DNA of 57,970 bases, taken from IMG/VR virus record IMGVR_UViG_3300045988_094645, one strand, 5' to 3'. Positions 222 through 8,620 of this stretch are shown piece by piece. The notes under the pieces are model-generated. The model ran no database searches and was not told the DNA's origin. It saw nothing but the letters and a program-made list of their open reading frames with translations. How positions within the stretch are numbered: the stretch's first letter is position 1; each line of letters begins with the position of its first letter. The translations under genes were made by a program, and so were the position numbers. This stretch comes from a virus.

Positions 222-250
222 AAGACTCCCTTAAAAGGGAGTCTTTATTT
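222..250. terminator. bidirectional intrinsic terminator AAAGACTCCC-ttaaaa-GGGAGTCTTT flanked by A/T runs
   Basis: perfect 10-bp stem with T-run after it and A-run before it, between convergent minus genes. Confidence 0.6.
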
Positions 251-767
251 ACTCAAGGCTAATGCCATATCCATCTTGGATAAATGACCCTTCTGGAATA
301 TAGATATTATATTCTGTAGACCAAGAGCCAAACAAAACATTTAGGACGGGATTTTTAAAGCGGACAGTGTTTTCTGTTGCATATGGAGCGTCGGAAGTTT
401 CTTGAATGTAAGTTTTATCTGCTTTAATAGACTTTGAAGTGATGCCTTTATCCGTTTGATATAGGAACGAATAGCAAAGTCCATCTTCTGAACTAAAGTT
501 ATCACTTAGTGCGATAATATCATAGGTTGCGATAGTTTCTGCTGAATAGGTTTCGGGGTTTGCACATTCAATGATGAATACGCATACTACGAGTGATAGA
601 AATGTTAGAAATATAGAGCCAAACATGGAAAAGAGTGAGCATACTATATACTCGATAATGCTGTCACAACCTGCGAGCAAAAAGATGAGCAGCATAATAC
701 AGAAAGCAATAGGTAGAATAATAGGTAGCATTACATTAACCTCCTTTATATATAAATATAATACCAT
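249..767 (-). CDS. putative lipoprotein or membrane protein (signal peptide with lipobox LLAGC, second hydrophobic helix); possible superinfection-exclusion-type moron
   Basis: supplied ORF; N-terminal MLPIILPIAFCIMLLIFLLAGCDS fits a lipoprotein signal peptide. Confidence 0.45.
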   Translation of the reverse strand: MVLYLYIKEVNVMLPIILPIAFCIMLLIFLLAGCDSIIEYIVCSLFSMFGSIFLTFLSLVVCVFIIECANPETYSAETIATYDIIALSDNFSSEDGLCYSFLYQTDKGITSKSIKADKTYIQETSDAPYATENTVRFKNPVLNVLFGSWSTEYNIYIPEGSFIQDGYGISLE

Positions 768-904
768 ATAAAATATACAATTTCAGATGCGGGAGGGCAT
801 ACAACGAATCGTCATAATTTCTCACGGATGCGGGAAAATTTTAGGCAAGAAAATTGCCAGTCCGCAGTTGTTATATTGTTTATTTTTTTAGAAAAAAGTT
901 TAAC

Positions 905-950
905 AAATTTTAGGACAAAGCAGAAAAATTATGGTATAATAAAAGTGAAA
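905..950 (+). promoter_or_regulatory. sigma-70-type promoter with extended -10 (TGgTATAAT) driving the RHH gene; divergent region holds GATGCGGGA direct repeats at 793-801 and 830-838
   Basis: ttatggtataat sits ~25 nt upstream of the ATG at 971. Confidence 0.45.
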
Positions 951-970
951 TATAGTAGAGAGGTGATAAT

Positions 971-1114
971 ATGAATTATTCGACTGTTTCTGTTAGATTA
1001 ACAGAGGAAGAAAAAAAGACTTTAGAAGAGTTTGCGAAGGATAGAGATTTAACTATGTCGCAAGTAATTAGAAAAGCAGTAAAAGAATATATAGAAAACC
1101 ATTCGAACGACTAA
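971..1114 (+). CDS. ribbon-helix-helix (CopG/Arc-like) DNA-binding protein, 47 aa
   Basis: MNYSTVSVRLTEEEKKTLEEFAKDRDLTMSQVIRKAVKEYIENHSND; RHH beta-strand SVRLTEEE followed by two helices; RBS gagaggtga. Confidence 0.5.
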   Translation: MNYSTVSVRLTEEEKKTLEEFAKDRDLTMSQVIRKAVKEYIENHSND

Positions 1115-1130
1115 AGGAGACGAAAACAAA

Positions 1131-1349
1131 ATGACTAATAATTATAAGGTTTTTACTTTGAAGTTAGCTAGAAAGCTATGTGAGTTGGGATTTAAGGTTG
1201 TTGGAACAGCACCAAATGCTTAGAAACCTTGGTTAAATGTTTATCTTTTTGAAGATACTTAGGAATTAAGAGAAGCGATTGAGAAATATAAGGGACAAAG
1301 TTCGCTATTGGAGGATGATTGCCATGGCAGACAAAAGAAGAAGTCCTAA
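1131..1349 (+). CDS. small hypothetical protein (~72 aa) with two in-frame TAG codons read as sense
   Basis: MTNNYKVFTLKLARKLCELGFKVVGTAPNA[TAG]KPWLNVYLFEDT[TAG]ELREAIEKYKGQ... continues to TAA; RBS AAGGAGA. Confidence 0.4.
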
Positions 1350-1713
1350 TTAGCGAACAGTAAGTCATATTCATAAAGAGCCTTGTAATACTAATAATAT
1401 ATATGCTAGAATTAATAAGGATGCTTTATTTGCGGCGAGAAGAGAACTTAGTGATGGTGAGTTTTCTTTATGGATATTTTTTGCTAGTTAGTCAGAGAAG
1501 TTGACAGATTATGATTTTGGCCCTACTATTATTGAGAGGGAGTTGGGTATAAAGAAAGCTAAATATACAAATGCAATAGAAGGATTGGTAGAAAAAGGGT
1601 ATTTGATTCCTCTTGAGAAGAAGGGGTATTACGATTTTTACGAAGTTCCTAAAATTATTGACGAGGATAAATATAATTATGTCGCTCCCAACGGAGAAAA
1701 ATTTTCGTTTTAA
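1324..1713 (+). CDS. replication initiator-like / winged-helix DNA-binding protein (~129 aa) with two in-frame TAGs; sits next to the iteron array
   Basis: MADKRRSPN[TAG]RTVSHIHKEPCNTNNIYARINKDALFAARRELSDGEFSLWIFFAS[TAG]SEKLTDYDFGPTIIERELGIKKAKYTNAIEGLVEKGYLIPLEKKGYYDFYEVP... resembles plasmid/phage Rep N-terminal wHTH; the 3' part is the supplied ORF 1501-1713. Confidence 0.45.
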
Positions 1714-1715
1714 TT

Positions 1716-2012
1716 TTCATGTATTTCTGAGAATACCATGAAAATTTCATAGTATTGTGAGAAACCTATGAAATCATGTATTTGTTGGAAAGTTATGAAA
1801 ATTTCATAGTATTCTGACAAATACATGATTTTAATTGAAAGATTTATTTCATGGTATTCCAACAATACTATGACATGGTATTCTGACAATACCATGAAAG
1901 TAAATAAAAATCCATTTCATGGTATTCTGACAATACCATAAATATAACATATATAAGATAACAAAGAAAAGACAACGGCGACTTTTTCATGTATTTGTGA
2001 GAAAGCGATGGA
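1716..2012. repeat. iteron/operator array: ~8 copies of a 25-29 bp imperfect palindrome, consensus TCATGGTATT-CTGAC-AATACCATGA
   Basis: copies at 1716-1742, 1745-1773, 1775-1802, 1802-1828, 1848-1874, 1874-1899 (perfect 10-bp arms), 1915-1942 and 1984-2012. Confidence 0.7.
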
Positions 2013-2026
2013 TAGGGAGGATAACC

Positions 2027-2176
2027 ATGGAAGATTTTCAGAGGTGGGAGGATATTCAAGGAAGTATAGATGGGACGATGGGAGCAAATGATTTAGAAAA
2101 TCGAATTGAAAAGCTGGAAGAAGGTTTTAGAAAAATCGAATCAAAAATTAAAGGGAAAAGTCAAGAAGAAGAGTAA
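2027..2176 (+). CDS. small coiled-coil protein, 49 aa
   Basis: GGGAGG RBS then ATG; MEDFQRWEDIQGSIDGTMGANDLENRIEKLEEGFRKIESKIKGKSQEEE; ends TAA. Confidence 0.35.
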   Translation: MEDFQRWEDIQGSIDGTMGANDLENRIEKLEEGFRKIESKIKGKSQEEE

Positions 2177-2458
2177 TGGGTAGGGTAAGAGAGATTAATA
2201 GAGGTAGAGGAAAAGGGATTATTGAATCTATATGAGGATTCGAGTTAGATTACAAGCGAAGCCATAAGAAAGTGGATAGACTATAGGGAGAATATAAGTG
2301 AAATTGGAGAAAATTAGAAGAATAGTAGAGAAAATTGGAGAAATAGTAGAGTTGGGTGCCGATCGGGTCTAGGTACAACCATCACAACACTCGTCAAAAC
2401 GATCGTAAACCTAGGCTTCCGCGATTCTTCTACTTCTTTCCTCTTGTTTAATAGCAAT

Positions 2459-2492
2459 AAAAAAAGAGAGGTATCTCTACCTCTCTTTTATC
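2459..2492. terminator. intrinsic terminator AGAGAGGTA-tctc-TACCTCTCT with A-run before and T-run after
   Basis: hairpin lies directly 3' of minus gene 2488-2961. Confidence 0.55.
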
Positions 2493-2961
2493 TAAGCCCT
2501 CTCAAGAACTTAGCTACCACATCTTCATCATTGTTGCTCTTGATGGAAACGGAGACCGATTCATTTCGCATCTCCTGAATCGCCTTCTCAATTATCTTAT
2601 CAAGCTCTTCCTCTGTCGCTGCAAGTGCATCATTGATATTATTCATCCCGACAATTCGGGCAGAAATACGAGCAGTCTCAGTGATAGCCTCTGCATATTT
2701 ATTGATAGTATCAGCATCCCACTCAGGGTGAGAAGGAGCATAAATAAGAACTGCAAGCTGTCCGATATGCTCTGCATCAAGATGCTCATCATCAACAGCA
2801 TTTAGAAAGTCGCACTCAATTTCATCCAAAGCTTGCTGACGAGCCTTCCGAACCTGATTCTGCTTATTAAAGACATTTAGAGCATCAGTAAACTCCTTAG
2901 CAATATCGTCGAGAGACGCACCGCCATCAAGAGCACATTTAATCATATTAGTATAATCCAT
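2488..2961 (-). CDS. hypothetical acidic protein (157 aa)
   Basis: supplied ORF; upstream minus promoter TTGCAA-17-TATAAT at ~2975-3003 and RBS AGAGGA. Confidence 0.45.
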   Translation of the reverse strand: MDYTNMIKCALDGGASLDDIAKEFTDALNVFNKQNQVRKARQQALDEIECDFLNAVDDEHLDAEHIGQLAVLIYAPSHPEWDADTINKYAEAITETARISARIVGMNNINDALAATEEELDKIIEKAIQEMRNESVSVSIKSNNDEDVVAKFLRGLR

Positions 2962-3455
2962 GGAATATATTCCTCTTTTCTTTCCTTTTATATTTATATT
3001 ATATAATATTATTTTATAAATTGCAACCGATCGGCCCTAGCTTAAAGATCTTTTATTCTAAAATAACTTCTCTGATTGAGGCATCGACTAGAAAATTCTT
3101 AGCTAGAGAATAAGTCTTTTTAATTGTATCTATAAAAGTATAGAACAGGTGAACATCAAGAAGATTTGCTGAAAATGAGGCAAATTTTGCTAATTTTTAA
3201 GTAATTTTATTAGAAAAATGTGCGTTTTTGCTAGATTTTTAGAGAATTTTCGCTATATTAAGAGAAAAACAAGAGGAAAAACCTGCGGACCGATCGGTTT
3301 ACCTAGCTAAAAGTAGAATTTTCTAGCTATTTTTATTATAAAATCTCGTTATTCCGATCGGCGCCGCAGAAAAATCTCTCGCTGGTATTTGTTTTTCATA
3401 GCAACATCTTTGCTATTGTTAGCTGTATAGGGGATAATGTTAGTCTTATGAACAC

Positions 3456-3490
3456 TTGACAATTTTAAATTTTTTTATTATAAAAAATGG
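3456..3490 (+). promoter_or_regulatory. plus-strand sigma-70-like promoter TTGACA-17-TATAAA in the non-coding region; only a tiny ORF lies downstream, so it may drive an ncRNA
   Basis: cttgacaattttaaatttttttattataaaaaatgg. Confidence 0.3.
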
Positions 3491-3668
3491 ACGAGAAAGC
3501 CGCTATTGCTGGACCGATCGGGATAAGATAGAAAACCGATCGGGTTATAATATAATTTTGGGAGATTCTAGACTAAGTTGCGTTATGGCCAACTTGCTAT
3601 GAAAATTTTGCGCTATGGTCCGATCGGGGAAACTCGGGCCGACACATCCCTGCGCGGCCCGGCGAAGT

Positions 3669-4283
3669 TCAAGGTATTGCTCGTATTAATTCTAAAGTTT
3701 TTTCATACCCATATTTAGAAATTAATCGAGTAGTTTCTCGAGTAATTTCTTCTCGATTCTTTAGCATTAAAAGGGTATTTTGTTCTTCTGTCGCCCATCT
3801 TAGATTCTCTAATCTATTATCTGTTCTGATTCCATTAATATGGTCAACTACCTTAGTTTCAAAATCCTCAATAGGGTTAAAAGTTTGCATAACAAGACGA
3901 TGAATTCTAACTGATTCACCACCGATTAATTCAGTTTTTAAATATCCATCCGAAGTCATAGAACCTTTAACTAGAGTTTTAGAATCCTTTTTTCTTACTC
4001 TTCCAAGATTAGAAACTTCGTGCTTGTTGGAACAGTAAGCGGTTTTCCAAATTTCTCCGGGGAGGGATTCCGCAATTTCAGATTTTCGAGTAGAAAAAGT
4101 AGAAGAATCAATAATCTAAGGAGAAATTTCTTTTACTTCATATATAGCTTTTGCTCCTACTCCTTGTTTTGAAATAAGATAGCCTTTTTTTGCTTGATTT
4201 GATGCAAATTTAGGAAAGTTAGTTGTAACGGTAGATTTAGAAGCATGGAAAAATTCAAGTAGTTCGTCAAGATTAAAAGTCAT
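3669..4283 (-). CDS. HNH homing endonuclease (NUMOD4-like N-terminus plus HNH/AP2-type core), ~204 aa; needs read-through of one in-frame TAG
   Basis: rc translation from ATG at 4283 (RBS GGAGG): ...KEISP[TAG]IIDSSTFSTRKSEIAESLPGEIWKTAYCSNKHEVSNLGRVRKKDSKTLVKGSMTSDGYLKT...HRLV...VDHINGIRTDNRLENLRWATEEQN. The NUMOD4 motif EIWK...VSNLGRVR lies between the TAG and the supplied ORF start with no alternative ATG. Confidence 0.6.
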
Positions 4284-4371
4284 TTTAAATACCTCCTTTG
4301 TTTCTATTATATATTAAAAATTCGGAAATGTCAATTAACCGTTTTAGTCCGAATTTTTCCGATTGAATTAT

Positions 4372-4394
4372 AAAGAGGGCCGAAGCCCTCTTTA
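4372..4394. terminator. bidirectional terminator AAAGAGGGC-cgaa-GCCCTCTTT; a near-identical copy lies at 7066-7092
   Basis: perfect stem flanked by A/T tracts. Confidence 0.55.
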
Positions 4395-4395
4395 A

Positions 4396-4647
4396 TCAAG
4401 TCTTTTCGATAAATCCAATGGTGCTAAAGTTTATATTATTGTAGCCAATGGAGAATTCGTTCTCAGAATTATAAAATGTAATAGCGCCGTATTCTTTCGT
4501 ATAATCGCAAATTGCGTTTACAACAGCATCCCATTTTCGTTTTCTATCTATTTGTTTTCTTGCTTGCATTTCTTTTTCACAAGCGGAAAGAAGATATTGC
4601 AAAGTTTCATCATTCATTTCCGCAATATTAAATCCAGAATTATCCAT
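4396..4647 (-). CDS. hypothetical protein (83 aa)
   Basis: supplied ORF; TGA stop; terminator downstream. Confidence 0.4.
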   Translation of the reverse strand: MDNSGFNIAEMNDETLQYLLSACEKEMQARKQIDRKRKWDAVVNAICDYTKEYGAITFYNSENEFSIGYNNINFSTIGFIEKT

Positions 4648-4664
4648 CTTAAAATCTCCCTTCT

Positions 4665-5113
4665 TTATTTGAAAATCTCGGTTGGAATTTCATTGAAAAC
4701 TTGCTTGAATTGTTCCATAGTAAGCTCTTTTGCCGCTCTCTCAACCCTTTCTTTTGACCAGTCGCAGACCATTTCACAGGAGATAAACTTGATTCTATAT
4801 CCGATAACTCTATAAATTTTAGGCGACCATCTAAATTTCCCGTCCGCCATATTTCCAGTGAAAATTATAAAATCGCCCGTGGCTCGTCTTTCTTCTGATT
4901 GTTTAAGCTGATCTTCTGCTATCTCTAAGGCATATTTTTCTCCGGTTTTAATGGCATCTTCTTCTGTTCTAGTATTGATAAAGAAGGTAGAACGCATAAA
5001 ATCATCTTGAAACGATACTGTAAACCAATAGGGCCTCTTGAAGAAAATTCCTTTTCGCCCCTCACAGTCAAAGGTAATCCGAAAATCAACTCGAAACTTC
5101 TTCAAACTCTCCA
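4665..5113 (-). CDS. hypothetical protein (~149 aa; likely start MESLKKF at 5113 with GGGAGG RBS; the longer supplied ORF runs into the promoter)
   Basis: supplied ORF 4665-5183; minus promoter TTGACA-17-TGgTATTAT at ~5130-5165. Confidence 0.4.
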
Positions 5114-5304
5114 TTTTCTTTACCTCCCTTGTTGAGATAATAATACCATATTTTCGGGAGAATGTCAAGCAGTCATTTTGCACAAAAAATCGAGTGAAAA
5201 TTATCTAAAATGCAAATAGAAGAAAAACTCGGTCCGCGGCGCACGCAAGCGGACCGCCCGCATATTGAGATAAAAAAACCACCCCATTTCTGGGGTGGTT
5301 CTTG

Positions 5305-5675
5305 TTAGCTTAGAATAACCGGGTATGCCTTGCGGATAATGACTGTTACCATGCGCGGGGGCGTGTCACAGAGAAAGCGGTCGTTTCTGATAAAATGTCC
5401 AATTCCCATATTTTGCCATAAAGTCCGGTTCAAGTCCTCATATCGAAGGGTATTATACTTAGATAACCGGATATACCAATCATAGGAAAAAGCACTATCC
5501 ACAGGCATGGTATAGTCTTTTGCCCGTTTATAATTCCTTGTATGCTCGGCGGCCCGTCTTTCGAGGTCGTTTGTTGTGCCAATCTTGAGAATATAGCGTC
5601 CCTTTACGTCTACATAATGCCCGACGTATAGAAACTCCTTTTCCCGTGTCTGTGTGCTAACTATGGAATACCTCT
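5305..5675 (-). CDS. GIY-YIG domain nuclease (putative homing endonuclease); N-terminal boundary uncertain
   Basis: same frame as supplied ORF 5305-5508 reads ...KEFLYVGHYVDVKGRYILKIGTTNDLERRAAEHTRNYKRAKDYTMPVDSAF..., matching the GIY...YIG...R...E motif spacing; no canonical start found upstream. Confidence 0.45.
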
Positions 5676-5680
5676 TTTCT

Positions 5681-5709
5681 GGTAGGGCTGGGGTAGGCCA
5701 GCCCTACCC
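5681..5709 (+). terminator. intrinsic terminator GGTAGGGCTGG-ggtaggc-CCAGCCCTACC followed by a T-run
   Basis: perfect 11-bp stem; ttatttttt follows. Confidence 0.5.
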
Positions 5710-5711
5710 CG

Positions 5712-6029
5712 TTATTTTTTCGGTTTACGCTTTTGTACAAGCGTTAACTCGAAACTATCCCCGCCGATAAAAAACGCAATTTGGCGTTCCTTGTTTGTTA
5801 TGGCAAGGTCAACAATCGAGAATTGACTATTTTTTTCCAAAAAGTCCGCCAGCTCTGCGATTATGCCGCCTTTAGTTGCGTTTGGCTTGCGTTGCCGTGG
5901 TGTAAATTTGTAGGCGGTAGGGGTTTTTCTTGTGCCAGCATGGGCGAATTTCTGCGCGATTTTCGCTTTATCGGGCGATAAATCGTATTGAGTTTTTTCA
6001 CCAGCTTCCACCGCCTTGTCATAGGCCAA
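5712..6029 (-). CDS. hypothetical protein (105 aa), GC-rich
   Basis: supplied ORF. Confidence 0.4.
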   Translation of the reverse strand: MAYDKAVEAGEKTQYDLSPDKAKIAQKFAHAGTRKTPTAYKFTPRQRKPNATKGGIIAELADFLEKNSQFSIVDLAITNKERQIAFFIGGDSFELTLVQKRKPKK

Positions 6030-6166
6030 TAGCTCCGCCTCCTCCTCTGGTGTCAGTTGGAGAGGCTTATATCTCGATAACCTCTCGGCGTCAGTGATAC
6101 GGCTCGATATAGTCTCACCCCCTAAGATAGAGTAGGGCGGGGATTTTCGCCCCGCCCTATACGGGG

Positions 6167-6568
6167 TTACGCCATCTTAAAGAGAGACTTGCCCTTCTTC
6201 TCCTGACAGGTCACACGGCCGTCCAGCTTGAGCATCCGCACAAGGGCGGCGGCCTTCTGAGTGGAGAAAGCGGCCAGAGAGGGCACAGACTTGAAAATGT
6301 CGGTACAGGTCACGCCGTCGGTGTCATCGGGCAGGCCGGCCAGATACTCCATAATCTGCTCCTTCAGGCTCTCGTTCTCCTGCTGGGTCGGGGTCAGCTT
6401 CTTGTCACCGCCGGAGCTATTCTTCTTCCGCAACAGCTCCAGCTCATGGTCAATGACGGTCATGGCAATCTCCATGGTTGTGCCATGCTTCACCTCCTCA
6501 CCAGCCAAGAGGGCCTTAATGTCCTCGAAACGCTGGGCCTTAGTGATACGGATTTTCTTCTCGCTCAT
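6167..6568 (-). CDS. hypothetical protein (133 aa), markedly GC-rich (~58%) compared with its surroundings
   Basis: supplied ORF; RBS AAAGGATG; terminator GGGCGGGGattttcgCCCCGCCC at 6135-6160. Confidence 0.45.
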   Translation of the reverse strand: MSEKKIRITKAQRFEDIKALLAGEEVKHGTTMEIAMTVIDHELELLRKKNSSGGDKKLTPTQQENESLKEQIMEYLAGLPDDTDGVTCTDIFKSVPSLAAFSTQKAAALVRMLKLDGRVTCQEKKGKSLFKMA

Positions 6569-6617
6569 GGTAATACATCCTTTCTGGTTTTTAGGACTGT
6601 CCTTGTCCTTTGATTAT

Positions 6618-6950
6618 ATTGTACCACACTATCGGGAGTTTGTCAAGAGGTTTTTCAAACTTTTTTCAAGAGCTTTTGCCCTTTACTTGTTTGCCCTCTC
6701 TCGTTCCCCTTATAGTGTAACACACTTTGGAGAGTTTGTCAAGCCCTTTTTTATTCACTTTTCAAGGTTCCTTGCCTTGTTTTCTGTACTTATTATAGCA
6801 CACTCACAAGGGCTTGTCAAGAGGTTTTTTGAAAGATTTTTGAAAGTTCGCTGTCGCTGTCTGCCGTTCGTCTCTCTCACTTTCTGTACTTATTGTACCA
6901 CACCACAAAGCGGATTTCAATTGTGAGATCCTCCAAAAGAACGTGATTTT
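6618..6950 (-). promoter_or_regulatory. tandem array of four near-consensus sigma-70 promoters, all facing gene 6167-6568
   Basis: rc modules: TTGACA-17-TACAAT (~6620-6650), TTGACA-17-TACACT (~6715-6745), TTGACA-17-TATAAT (~6795-6830), TTGAAA-17-TACAAT (~6880-6915); the modules share a GTGTGGTACAAT-like -10 context. Confidence 0.5.
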
Positions 6951-7091
6951 GGGATAGGGTTTTTGTGCAAAATGTTGCACAAAACGGAATCAAATTTTTT
7001 GTGCAACATTTACAAGGAAAAAATCGGGTCGCGCCGCCCATGCGCGACCCGCCAAAATATAAAACAAAAAAAGAAGGCCGAAGCCCTCTTT

Positions 7092-7274
7092 TTATCCGAA
7101 AAGGCAGTTATCTAAAAAGTCGAACAGGTGTTCATCCTCGGCGGGGATGGATACCAGTATATCCCCGTTTTCATCGGGTTCATCATGGCTCCATCCCATA
7201 CGCTTGATGATTTCAAGCGCCGTGAAAACGGCATCGGGACAAAGGGAAGAAGTATATACAATTCTTGTTTGCAT
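7092..7274 (-). CDS. small hypothetical protein (~60 aa)
   Basis: MQTRIVYTSSLCPDAVFTALEIIKRMGWSHDEPDENGDILVSIPAEDEHLFDFLDNCLFG; a second ~49-aa ORF (MFQGLKNKAIRF...) lies at ~7278-7427. Confidence 0.3.
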   Translation of the reverse strand: MQTRIVYTSSLCPDAVFTALEIIKRMGWSHDEPDENGDILVSIPAEDEHLFDFLDNCLFG

Positions 7275-7456
7275 ATTTAACCCTCTTTCTTTGAGTAGAA
7301 CTGGTCGGCATAAAACTGCATTTCTTTCTGCGTTACCTTGGAAAGCATGGCCTTGATGGTAAATACATCTGGGCACGTCCGCTCAAGTAGGAAGCGAATA
7401 GCCTTATTCTTTAATCCCTGAAACATTTCTTATTTCTCCTTCTACCGGGCGGGGCA

Positions 7457-8281
7457 TTAAGCCCCGACCCGGATTGTCGGAATCTGCCGCAAACTTGCGG
7501 AAAGCTGACGCTGAAAATCTGTCATGGGCGGAAACTCCCGCTTGTTCTCATACAGGGCCTTTCTCATGGGCTTATGCTGGCGCATACAGTACCACATGAT
7601 TTCCGCCTCAATCAGAACATCTTCCAGTCCCGTGTGGCTTTCCTCAAAATCAGTGTTGCCGGAGATAAACCGCCACACGATTTCCGCAGTCTTGCGGGGA
7701 ACGTCATTAGCCTGCACATACCCGTGTTCCTCACAGAATTTCTTATAGGTGGGCATCTGGCAAATGACATCTTGCGTCATTTTCATAATGTCCCAAATTT
7801 CCACGCTGTCAAATGGGAACCAATACCGGAATTTGGAACAAGTGACCCAACGCTGAGTGACCCGAAGGGCGTTATCATCGAAGCGGGCATTATATGCGGC
7901 GACCTCCTTAATGCCGTACCGCTCGATAGTGTCCAGCATGGCCTGACGGATTTCATAGGTAGTAGCCATCTTGCGACTGCCAGCCCGCAATTCCTCTACA
8001 TACCGGGGGATTTTCCAGTTATAATAGGCCGTCCGCATTAAATCCCGCTCGTCATTGAAAATATCCCGATTTACAAAACTTGCGGTTTCGTAAATATTGC
8101 CTTTGGTGTCTACGACCGCCCAGCCGCAGTCATATACCAAAACATTTGACATATCCATACGGACGCGCTCTGGAGTAATAATTTCCCCATCTTCCCCAAT
8201 TTCAGCGGGGACAGTCTCGGTTAATGTGTTGGCGGTTTCTGTATCAACCACCAGCACATAATGTCGGCGTTTATCAATCAT
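7457..8281 (-). CDS. DnaQ-like DEDDh 3'-5' exonuclease (274 aa)
   Basis: Exo I motif VLVVDTETAN near the N-terminus and H-x4-D (HTGLEDV) near the C-terminus; perfect TTGACA-17-TATAAT promoter at ~8310-8345; TAA stop inside a terminator hairpin. Confidence 0.55.
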   Translation of the reverse strand: MIDKRRHYVLVVDTETANTLTETVPAEIGEDGEIITPERVRMDMSNVLVYDCGWAVVDTKGNIYETASFVNRDIFNDERDLMRTAYYNWKIPRYVEELRAGSRKMATTYEIRQAMLDTIERYGIKEVAAYNARFDDNALRVTQRWVTCSKFRYWFPFDSVEIWDIMKMTQDVICQMPTYKKFCEEHGYVQANDVPRKTAEIVWRFISGNTDFEESHTGLEDVLIEAEIMWYCMRQHKPMRKALYENKREFPPMTDFQRQLSASLRQIPTIRVGA

Positions 8282-8454
8282 AATCTATCAAGTCCTTTCT
8301 TCTCTTGGTGGTATCATTATAGCACATTTAAGGCTTGGTGTCAAGAGGGATTTTATATTTTTTTTCTCCGTTGAAAAAGGCGTCGCGATAACCTCTCTCA
8401 CAAAAGGGACTCTTTACCCTACTCTGGAGAACTTTTTCCTTTCCTCCTGACATG

Positions 8455-8580
8455 ATAATAATACCATAGTTTCAGGATAATTGCAAGATGGCATTTTGCA
8501 CAAGATTTCTGCTTGAAAATTGTGCAACATTACAACAGAAAAAAATTCGGCCCGCGGCGCTCAAGCGCGGGCCGCTGATT
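8455..8580. repeat. ~125-bp intergenic module (GC hairpin terminator, TTGCACAA/TTGTGCAA inverted motif, TTGCAA-17-TGgTATTAT promoter), ~90% identical to 9905-10030
   Basis: direct comparison of the two segments; related partial copies at 5135-5265, 6955-7060, 11455-11585 and 13036-13070. Confidence 0.6.
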
Positions 8581-8620
8581 TTCTTTATATAAAAAATTCT
8601 CCCATTTAGGGAGGATTTTT

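Follow-up and report, generated by a model that had tools for sequence, protein, structure and literature searches.

The IMG/VR virus record IMGVR_UViG_3300045988_094645 is a stretch of 57,970 nucleotides, referred to here as the window, in which four co-directional promoters lie inside 303 bp of the minus strand (6618-6920) and feed one transcription unit. The array stands before a small gene at 6167-6568. It is very probably a stacked immediate-early promoter cassette for the host RNA polymerase, carried by a lytic gut phage in which the stop codon TAG is recoded to glutamine (TAG-to-Gln). An earlier sequence-only reading of the window had proposed that such stacking could give very high expression. 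This proposal is favoured by the promoter elements, which are kept while their spacers drift, by a link to one gene family down to 30% identity and by the codon bias of the gene. The arrangement further suggests that the promoters are active and fire early, that stacking brings an additive or kinetic benefit and that the mRNA is stabilised.

All four promoters were found at the positions given by that reading, and are numbered from P1 (proximal) to P4 (distal). P4 (6892-6920) has a -35 of TTGAAA (6920-6915) and a -10 of TACAAT (6897-6892) preceded by TGTGG. It contains no A-tract region resembling an UP element and is the weakest promoter of the window array. P3 (6792-6846) is a perfect consensus promoter, with TTGACA at 6820-6815, TGTGC, and TATAAT at 6797-6792. 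P2 (6714-6766) carries TTGACA (6742-6737), TGTGT and TACACT (6719-6714), and P1 (6618-6677) carries TTGACA (6646-6641), TGTGG and TACAAT (6623-6618). Two A-tracts about 11 bp apart are located immediately 5′ of the -35 in each of P1 to P3. Upstream of P3 they have 11-bp phasing (CTTTCAAAAATCTTTCAAAAAACCTC), with a period-11 repeat at 6826-6846. The A-tract region of P2 is CCTTGAAAAGTGAATAAAAAAGGGC, and that of P1 is again phased (CTTGAAAAAAGTTTGAAAAACCTC), with a period-12 repeat at 6638-6677; both repeats were detected by Tandem Repeats Finder.

Matches to the sigma-70/sigmaA hexamer consensus number 10/12 for P4, 12/12 for P3, 10/12 for P2 and 11/12 for P1. The spacer is 17 nt in each of the four, as had been claimed, and the shared ‘GTGTGGTACAAT-like context’ also holds, with TGTGn preceding every -10. 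The extended -10 of Gram-positive bacteria is reportedly a TRTG at -16, and a TRTG extension of this Gram-positive kind is present at 4/4 sites. The start-to-start distances are 100, 78 and 96 bp (mean 91), which corrects the spacing of ~85 bp first estimated. All four promoters do face the gene at 6568-6167, and no minus-strand terminator-like site was found within 6569-6960, the segments between the promoters included. The modules are 60-77% identical to one another, P1 and P2 sharing 77% over 57 nt. The description of the array as a duplicated regulatory cassette is borne out by the non-consensus bases that the modules share and by a copy number of one to five among relatives. Separate small open reading frames (ORFs) or small RNA products between the promoters were considered and rejected, as no ATG-initiated ORFs and no terminators are found there.

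Under a strict definition of a promoter (at least 10/12 hexamer matches, a 17-nt spacer and the TG), the window contains 11 on the minus strand and three on the plus strand, compared with 0.65 in total in dinucleotide shuffles. Clusters of more than one promoter (two sites within 330 bp) occurred in 0 of 700 shuffles, 200 of the whole window and 500 of the 5-13.5 kb region. A chance origin of the array is excluded. Repeats can mislead assemblers, and an assembly artefact had been raised as a caveat. It is refuted by four assemblies from other, independent samples, made by independent assemblers, in which the 532 bp 5′ of the gene are 99.4-100% identical and contain the same four promoters. Repeat collapse is also of no concern because the modules, at 60-77% identity, are too divergent from each other. 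An artefact of collapsed or expanded repeats, or a chance cluster, thus has a negligible probability. A long antisense ORF spanning the region (6261-6926) was correctly judged to be spurious; its frame closes to 51-149 amino acids in relatives, while at least 200 homologues were found for the sense gene.

The array is conserved in related phages, whose loci are numbered here with the prefix L. All four modules are retained in seven close relatives (80-87% protein identity), whose intergenic alignment is 94% identical, with differences mostly within the promoter spacers and near P4. Identity to close relatives is 87-92% for the array, 82-88% for the gene and 66-78% for the third codon positions of the gene. 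The array diverges more slowly than the third codon positions, which shows that purifying selection acts on this non-coding sequence. In 41 non-identical loci between one and five promoters precede the gene family: four is the commonest number (22 loci), then three (11 loci), while five are found at 2 loci and two or one at 3 loci each. P1 is present in 41/41, and the promoter spacing is at least 77 bp in every case.

The upstream copies retain perfect or near-perfect hexamers, the spacer length and the TG down to 55-60% protein identity. Three loci (L012, L016 and L018) have four or five promoters each scoring 11-12/12, and the orthologue of P2 has a -10 of TATAAT in L012 and L016. The orthologues of P4 have a -35 of TTGCAA, TTGAAA, TTGACT or TTGATT, always the weakest of the array, and a -10 of TAAAAT or TACAAT. 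Forty-five modules from 12 relatives give the consensus aAAAAAnctC-TTGACAAaC-n5-aaa-n-TgTGn-TAtAAT-A, with a 17-nt spacer in 45/45. Conservation across these modules is concentrated on the promoter elements, and the majority of spacer positions are free to vary. The conserved positions are exactly those contacted by the sigmaA holoenzyme.

The association with one gene extends further, as homologues of the gene at 30-40% identity have at least three consensus promoters directly upstream. A strict census of IMG/VR for three TTGACA-17-TAYAAT promoters in tandem, with 48-78-nt gaps, matched 96 viral stretches, which have three or more such perfect promoters. Of the 80 that were fetched, eight encode a homologue of the array gene (30-56% identity) with the array upstream, mostly directly adjacent. 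From this census, stacked consensus promoters are a recurrent though rare phage device, tied to one gene in this clade. Most of the census stretches (L057-L136) are unrelated to the clade and do not have the TG extension. A frequent class among them has spacings of ~87 and ~100 bp on contigs of ~41% GC, with no GenBank phage match. A cultured phage with a similar triple array was sought by blastn of one unrelated array against GenBank phages, which returned no match.

The gene driven by the array (6167-6568, minus strand) encodes a protein of 133 amino acids, in which a helical hairpin at the N-terminus is joined to a winged helix at the C-terminus. The start codon of the gene, ATG at 6568-6566, and the Shine-Dalgarno (SD) sequence AGAAAGGA at 6585-6578 lie within 6566-6585. 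The string AAAACCAGAAAGGA at the start of the gene is kept in most relatives, down to 42% protein identity. The protein has at least 200 homologues at E<=0.001, none with a recorded Pfam domain, which derive mostly from metagenome contigs, many of them phage-sized. Searches of Pfam, PHROG and NCBIfam gave no family for the gene or its neighbour. The AlphaFold2 model has a mean predicted local distance difference test (pLDDT) score of 89. Foldseek matches to winged-helix proteins (Z-alpha, ArsR, Fur/PerR, MarR, TubR) are weak, with a best E of 3.7e-3 and none <=0.001, and the viral matches, from searches of the PDB and BFVD, are uncharacterised phage proteins. A 20.7-kb contig from a Bacteroidales bin of a metagenome-assembled genome (MAG), CAAGHA010000180.1, carries two paralogous winged-helix genes (L156/L157) 3.7 kb apart, with 39-41% identity to the window protein.

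The gene had been described as small and GC-rich, and it has 56% GC and a GC content at third codon positions (GC3) of 0.78, in a window of 36% GC. This GC3 is the highest of the 32 tabulated ORFs, the next values being 0.60, 0.57 and 0.56. Late genes have a GC3 of 0.23-0.33, minus-strand genes range from 0.12 to 0.78, and homologues of the array gene range from 0.49 to 0.81. That the gene with the most promoters also has a strong codon bias is independent, indirect support for very high expression.

Each promoter is followed by a purine-rich leader, the sequence 3′ of the -10 elements being 70% purine. The P4 leader (6846-6891, minus strand) contains the SD-like run CAGAAAGTGAGAGAGAC and no start codon. 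SD-like runs without a start codon are found 3′ of P4 as CAGAAAGTGAGAGAG and 3′ of P2 as AAGGGGAACGAGAGAGGG. An inter-promoter segment, GAACGGCAGACAGCGACAGCGAAC (6869-6846, minus strand), is near-invariant in the alignment of relatives. It is identical in the five nearest, has a C/T substitution in L004, L006 and L007, and is recognisable as AACGGCnnnnAGCGACAG at 55-60% protein identity in the arrays of L012, L014, L016, L017, L020, L037 and L041. The P3 leader has a hairpin near its 5′ end (6763-6779, minus strand; CAAGG-caaggaa-CCTTG), of which relatives keep the stem and vary the loop.

The P1 leader runs for 49 nt to the ATG at 6568 and has a 5′-proximal hairpin (6593-6609, minus strand) with an AGGAC/GUCCU stem and an invariant 7-nt loop, AAGGACA. 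Among relatives the stem occurs as AGGAC/GUCCU, AGAC/GUCU, AGUC/GACU and GAGG/CCUC, through paired substitutions. Four stem pairs are changed on both sides, and the observed covariation score was reached in 0/500 shuffles. The covariation is supportive, not conclusive, as the sequences were picked by eye and the sample is small. An Rfam search of 4500-13500 at permissive thresholds gave two chance-level matches elsewhere, nothing relevant and no family for the leader hairpins.

The leaders have an SD-like run or stem-loop within the first ~30 nt with no start codon after it, the arrangement of a 5′ mRNA stabiliser. The purine runs and the 5′ hairpin probably protect the mRNA from decay at the 5′ end. 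Stabilisers composed of SD-like or polypurine sequences and 5′ stem-loops are described for Bacillus, including the early RNA of phage SP82 (PMC7509114, citing Hue et al. 1995; Agaisse & Lereclus 1996). The leaders of the window resemble the SP82 polypurine sequence and the cryIIIA STAB-SD in having SD-like purine runs near the 5′ end, no start codon and a 5′-proximal hairpin. They differ in that a stabilising effect is suggested by their sequence, and that the hairpin with the AAGGACA loop has no Rfam match.

At its upstream edge the array is bounded by two consecutive hairpins with T-runs resembling intrinsic terminators (7093-7068 and 7051-7025, minus strand), which close the upstream gene. 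Compensatory changes are found in the terminator stem of relatives. As these two terminators end the upstream unit, the array opens a new transcription unit. Between the terminators and P4 is a three-copy cluster of TTGTGCAA/TTGCACAA (6960-7011), an 8-10-nt motif with nested palindromes. Its 15-nt arms are perfectly complementary and separated by 12 nt, with an inner 10-nt palindrome. In relatives, one TTGTGCAA copy abuts the -35 of the distal promoter. The cluster looks like an operator at the edge of the array.

The same motifs recur across the early region, as inverted TTGTGCAA/TTGCACAA pairs with a common 23-nt offset or as single copies 5′ of promoters. In addition to the cluster at 6960-7011, they are found at 8496-8527, 9951-9982 and 11599-11630, with single copies at 5178-5186, 11498-11506 and 13034-13042. 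Two near-identical operator and promoter cassettes on the minus strand, 8458-8527 and 9913-9982, consist of TGTTGCACAA-N15-TTGTGCAAAATG followed by TTGCAA, 17 nt and TATTAT with the TG; the distal promoter in the arrays of relatives is of the same TTGCAA class. Gokushovirus WZ-2015a, an unrelated 5.7-kb microvirus of the gut, also carries the TTGTGCAA/TTGCACAA pair (L153 150-171) 5′ of a similar-looking promoter, which suggests a site for a host factor. The sequence TTTTGCACA matches the relaxed DnaA-box pattern TTWTNCACA. A replication origin was considered and rejected, as the GC skew just tracks gene orientation and the TTGTGCAA clusters are multiple.

In the proposed mechanism, each module would be near-optimal for the housekeeping RNA polymerase of the host, and the phased A-tracts would act in the manner of an UP element or as curved DNA. 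The sigmaA polymerase would bind every module, its footprint of ~75 bp fitting the 77-bp minimum spacing. With a spacing of at least 77 bp, all four sites could be occupied simultaneously. As the promoters have the same direction and no terminator between them, all transcripts would reach the winged-helix gene and the next gene. On a single infecting genome, several polymerase-capture sites would bring the first transcript forward in time and increase the rate of initiation, and the leaders would then lengthen the life of the mRNA. The weaker distal promoter beside the TTGTGCAA sites would be the likely control point, and P4 is probably the regulated member of the array.

Several alternatives to an expression cassette can be weighed on the same features. 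The sequence-only reading had noted that the promoters could sequester RNA polymerase or sigma factor. In such a sink, the array and about ten other early consensus promoters would titrate the host holoenzyme and shut off the host, expression of the gene being secondary. Near-perfect consensus sequences with UP-like regions and extended -10 elements should indeed bind the holoenzyme very tightly, and 11 such sites occupy one strand of ~12 kb, with an array copy number of up to five. A sink is nevertheless distinctly unlikely to be the main function, and sequestration would be an addition to expression. The tie of the array to one gene family, down to 30% identity, and the strong codon bias of that gene point to expression as the selected trait. 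Titration would also have no need for co-orientation, a terminator-free path or conserved leaders, and until the phage replicates its sites are few per genome relative to the promoters of the host. It is very unlikely that the modules are instead a protein-binding repeat array (an iteron, centromere or operator, as in parC/ParR and tubC/TubR) or part of an origin, bound by the winged-helix protein and resembling promoters only incidentally or secondarily. The fold of the downstream protein, with weak structural matches that include TubR and the pNOB8 centromere-binding protein, is in keeping with such a role, as are the 11-12-bp repeat units of the A-tract regions, the invariant non-promoter segment and the TTGTGCAA motifs. 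However, beyond the sigmaA promoter consensus and the A-tracts the modules have little in common, and no distinct binding motif. No partition NTPase or replication initiator was found among the neighbours with Pfam, PHROG and NCBIfam. Single copies of the same module precede many other early genes, and it is also found in microviruses. The TTGTGCAA clusters, present in at least four other places of the early region, do not mark a unique origin.

It is highly improbable that the upstream promoters are neutral leftovers of tandem duplication, decaying while only the proximal copy matters. The modules are paralogous (77% identity between P1 and P2), the copy number varies among relatives, and P2 and P4 of the window are off consensus, all of which would be expected of leftovers. 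Decay is contradicted by upstream copies with intact hexamers, spacer and TG at 55-60% protein identity, by the several relatives with four or five promoters of 11-12/12, and by an array that diverges more slowly than third codon positions, with its variation concentrated in the promoter spacers. An unlikely extension of the cassette model is a phased platform that loads several RNA polymerases at once and hijacks the sigmaA holoenzyme of the host, with a host factor at TTGTGCAA as its gate. Spacing classes of ~10.5-11 bp would fix the rotational relation of adjacent polymerases, and the TTGTGCAA sites would be common to unrelated microviruses of the same host. In the arrays of relatives (L002-L056) the spacings fall into classes of 77-80, 88-92, 94-102, 109-114 and 120-122 bp, and their periodicity peaks at 10.5-10.75 bp (Rayleigh R=0.66), which is nominally significant for data points that are phylogenetically dependent. 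Unrelated phage arrays have no such spacing gaps. The classes may reflect gain or loss of 11-bp A-tract units, or helical phasing, which is kept as an indication only.

Some observations weigh against the preferred reading of an immediate-early expression cassette, or limit it. A fourfold expression does not follow from four promoters, because polymerases reading through can occlude the promoters downstream. P2, with TACACT, and P4, with TTGAAA and no A-tracts, are weaker matches to the consensus. The high GC3 of the gene could have causes other than expression level. The segment at 6869-6846 and the TTGTGCAA sites are beyond what a pure promoter model explains. The host, in turn, is deduced from the promoter type, from the host prediction for the phage phAss-1 and from contigs binned into MAGs.

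The window has the genetic code of a TAG-recoded phage. Between 16 and 54 kb the plus strand (16166-54513) contains short ORFs under the standard code and continuous genes once TAG is read through. The recoded regions, under code 15 with TAG to Gln, are 16166-54513 on the plus strand and 54558-57809 on the minus strand. One of the recoded ORFs has 2,904 codons and 103 in-frame TAGs. In-frame TAGs number 11-103 in six of the eight tabulated late ORFs and are absent from the tabulated minus-strand ORFs (249-15596). A transcription unit without in-frame TAG, such as that of the array, fits with expression before recoding would set in. Host-type promoters and small, uncharacterised genes are further indirect signs of the early class.

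In human gut metagenomes this phage is found very frequently, and the exact sequence of the array protein is indexed in 527 blocks of a public sequence collection. The array locus has varying positions within the ~150-kb contigs of this phage type. The sole similar phage DNA in GenBank is a promoter-sized stretch of phAss-1 (‘Caudoviricetes code 15 clade’), for which Clostridia are the predicted hosts (PMC10607447). Two phage-sized contigs with the gene were binned with Oscillospiraceae and Eubacterium MAGs, and the bacterial genomes scanned for a host yielded nothing but entire phage contigs that had been binned into MAGs. The host is probably a member of the Clostridia. Unrelated gut microviruses carry the same promoter module, which therefore reflects the promoter optimum of the host.

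In the surrounding region, from 4 to 16 kb, the genes are short, every one has a strong promoter to itself and many also have a terminator; this is the architecture of an early or host-takeover region. In the 5-13.5 kb interval, 10/10 strict promoters are on the minus strand, 5′ of small ORFs.

Stacked early promoters are known from other phages. T7 reportedly has the tandem early promoters A1, A2 and A3. In T7 and T3 these are strong co-directional promoters for the host polymerase, ~100-125 bp apart with no terminator between them, and they feed the first early genes. The first of these in T7 encodes Ocr, a small protein that is needed immediately and acts as a DNA mimic. The window array is likewise co-directional, host-type and terminator-free, and is placed ahead of a small gene. 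It differs in having four promoters (up to five in relatives) of a Gram-positive type, with a TRTG extended -10 and A-tracts, and in a first gene that encodes a winged-helix protein and not a DNA mimic. Phage phi29 has two co-directional sigmaA early promoters, A2b and A2c, ~100 bp apart, which are controlled by p4, p6 and the host protein Spo0A; the regulator sites around A2b/A2c switch early transcription off. The tandem sigmaA-type early promoters of a Firmicute phage are a point of likeness (context in PMC2731898), whereas phi29 has two promoters and named regulators and the window has four with a putative TTGTGCAA factor.

The host-takeover module of SPO1 is described as a set of small early genes in short operons, with promoters and ribosome-binding sites typical of high expression by the host sigmaA polymerase (Stewart et al. 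1998, as cited in PMC6873191). The 4-16 kb region of the window is similarly made up of promoter-gene-terminator cassettes. In contrast to SPO1, the window phage is an uncultured, TAG-recoded gut phage with four to five promoters stacked in front of one gene, and it has no protein homology to the SPO1 genes. A parallel in recoding is the distant code-15 phage phAss-1, also from the human gut, whose late genes are TAG-to-Gln recoded and whose host is predicted to belong to the Clostridia (PMC10607447). It carries three to four look-alike tandem promoters before another small gene, although its DNA similarity to the window is confined to the promoter modules. In the genome linearised with PhageTerm, this array faces inward from a position ~3.3 kb short of the right end. 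The phAss-1 paper (PMC10607447) does not mention promoters. Homology between the two array genes was examined and is not demonstrable (BLASTP E=0.09 and 0.5; hhalign probability of 5% over the first 36 residues).

The stacked array is thus a known device, of the T7 A1-A3, SPO1 and phi29 type, and no new regulatory principle. What sets it apart from these systems is the copy number of four to five, the Gram-positive promoter features, the conserved pairing with a winged-helix gene and the occurrence in uncultured TAG-recoded gut phages, which are poorly understood. The array marks the gene that these phages appear to need first and most, and this gene is a clear candidate for a role in anti-defence or host takeover. 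The natural promoters and leaders of the array also form a ready set of very strong modules for use in gut Clostridia, which are short of genetic tools. The natural series of one to five copies among relatives offers a way to study the summation of tandem promoters.

The second gene of the unit (5712-6110, minus strand) follows a GC-rich hairpin without a T-tail at 6133-6159 (minus strand), of which relatives keep the pairing with different stem sequences. The hairpin may serve to stabilise the 3′ end of the mRNA or act as a weak attenuator, and is no clear terminator. The second gene probably starts at a non-canonical ATA (6110-6108), 4-5 nt after the strong SD GGGGGTGA. Its homology, including the conserved peptide ISSRITDAER, extends 5′ of the first canonical start, TTG at 6029. 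The arrangement of SD and ATA is also found in several relatives, and L018 has an ATG.

Elsewhere in the early region, a second tandem pair of promoters (12878-13004, minus strand) has -35 elements starting at 13004 and 12906, 98 bp apart. The gene behind this pair (12826-12449) encodes 125 amino acids and has a GC3 of 0.56, and the TTGTGCAA copy at 13034-13042 is adjacent. The early region (5000-13000) has 44% GC and the late block 35%. The GC3 pattern may represent codon adaptation of immediate-early genes to a host richer in GC, at a stage that precedes the action of phage tRNAs or suppressor tRNAs. The upstream neighbour of the array in all relatives, ORF 7457-8281 (minus strand), matches phrog_20187 strongly and an exonuclease-subunit PHROG weakly. 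A further ORF at 13653-14417 (minus strand) has a match to TIGR02452 (E=1e-54), a family that is uncharacterised. Where the leftward block meets the rightward, TAG-recoded one, two promoters diverge back to back (16126-16190), with TTGACC, 17 nt and TATAAT on the minus strand (-35 start at 16154) and TTGACA, 17 nt and TATTAT on the plus strand (-35 start at 16162).

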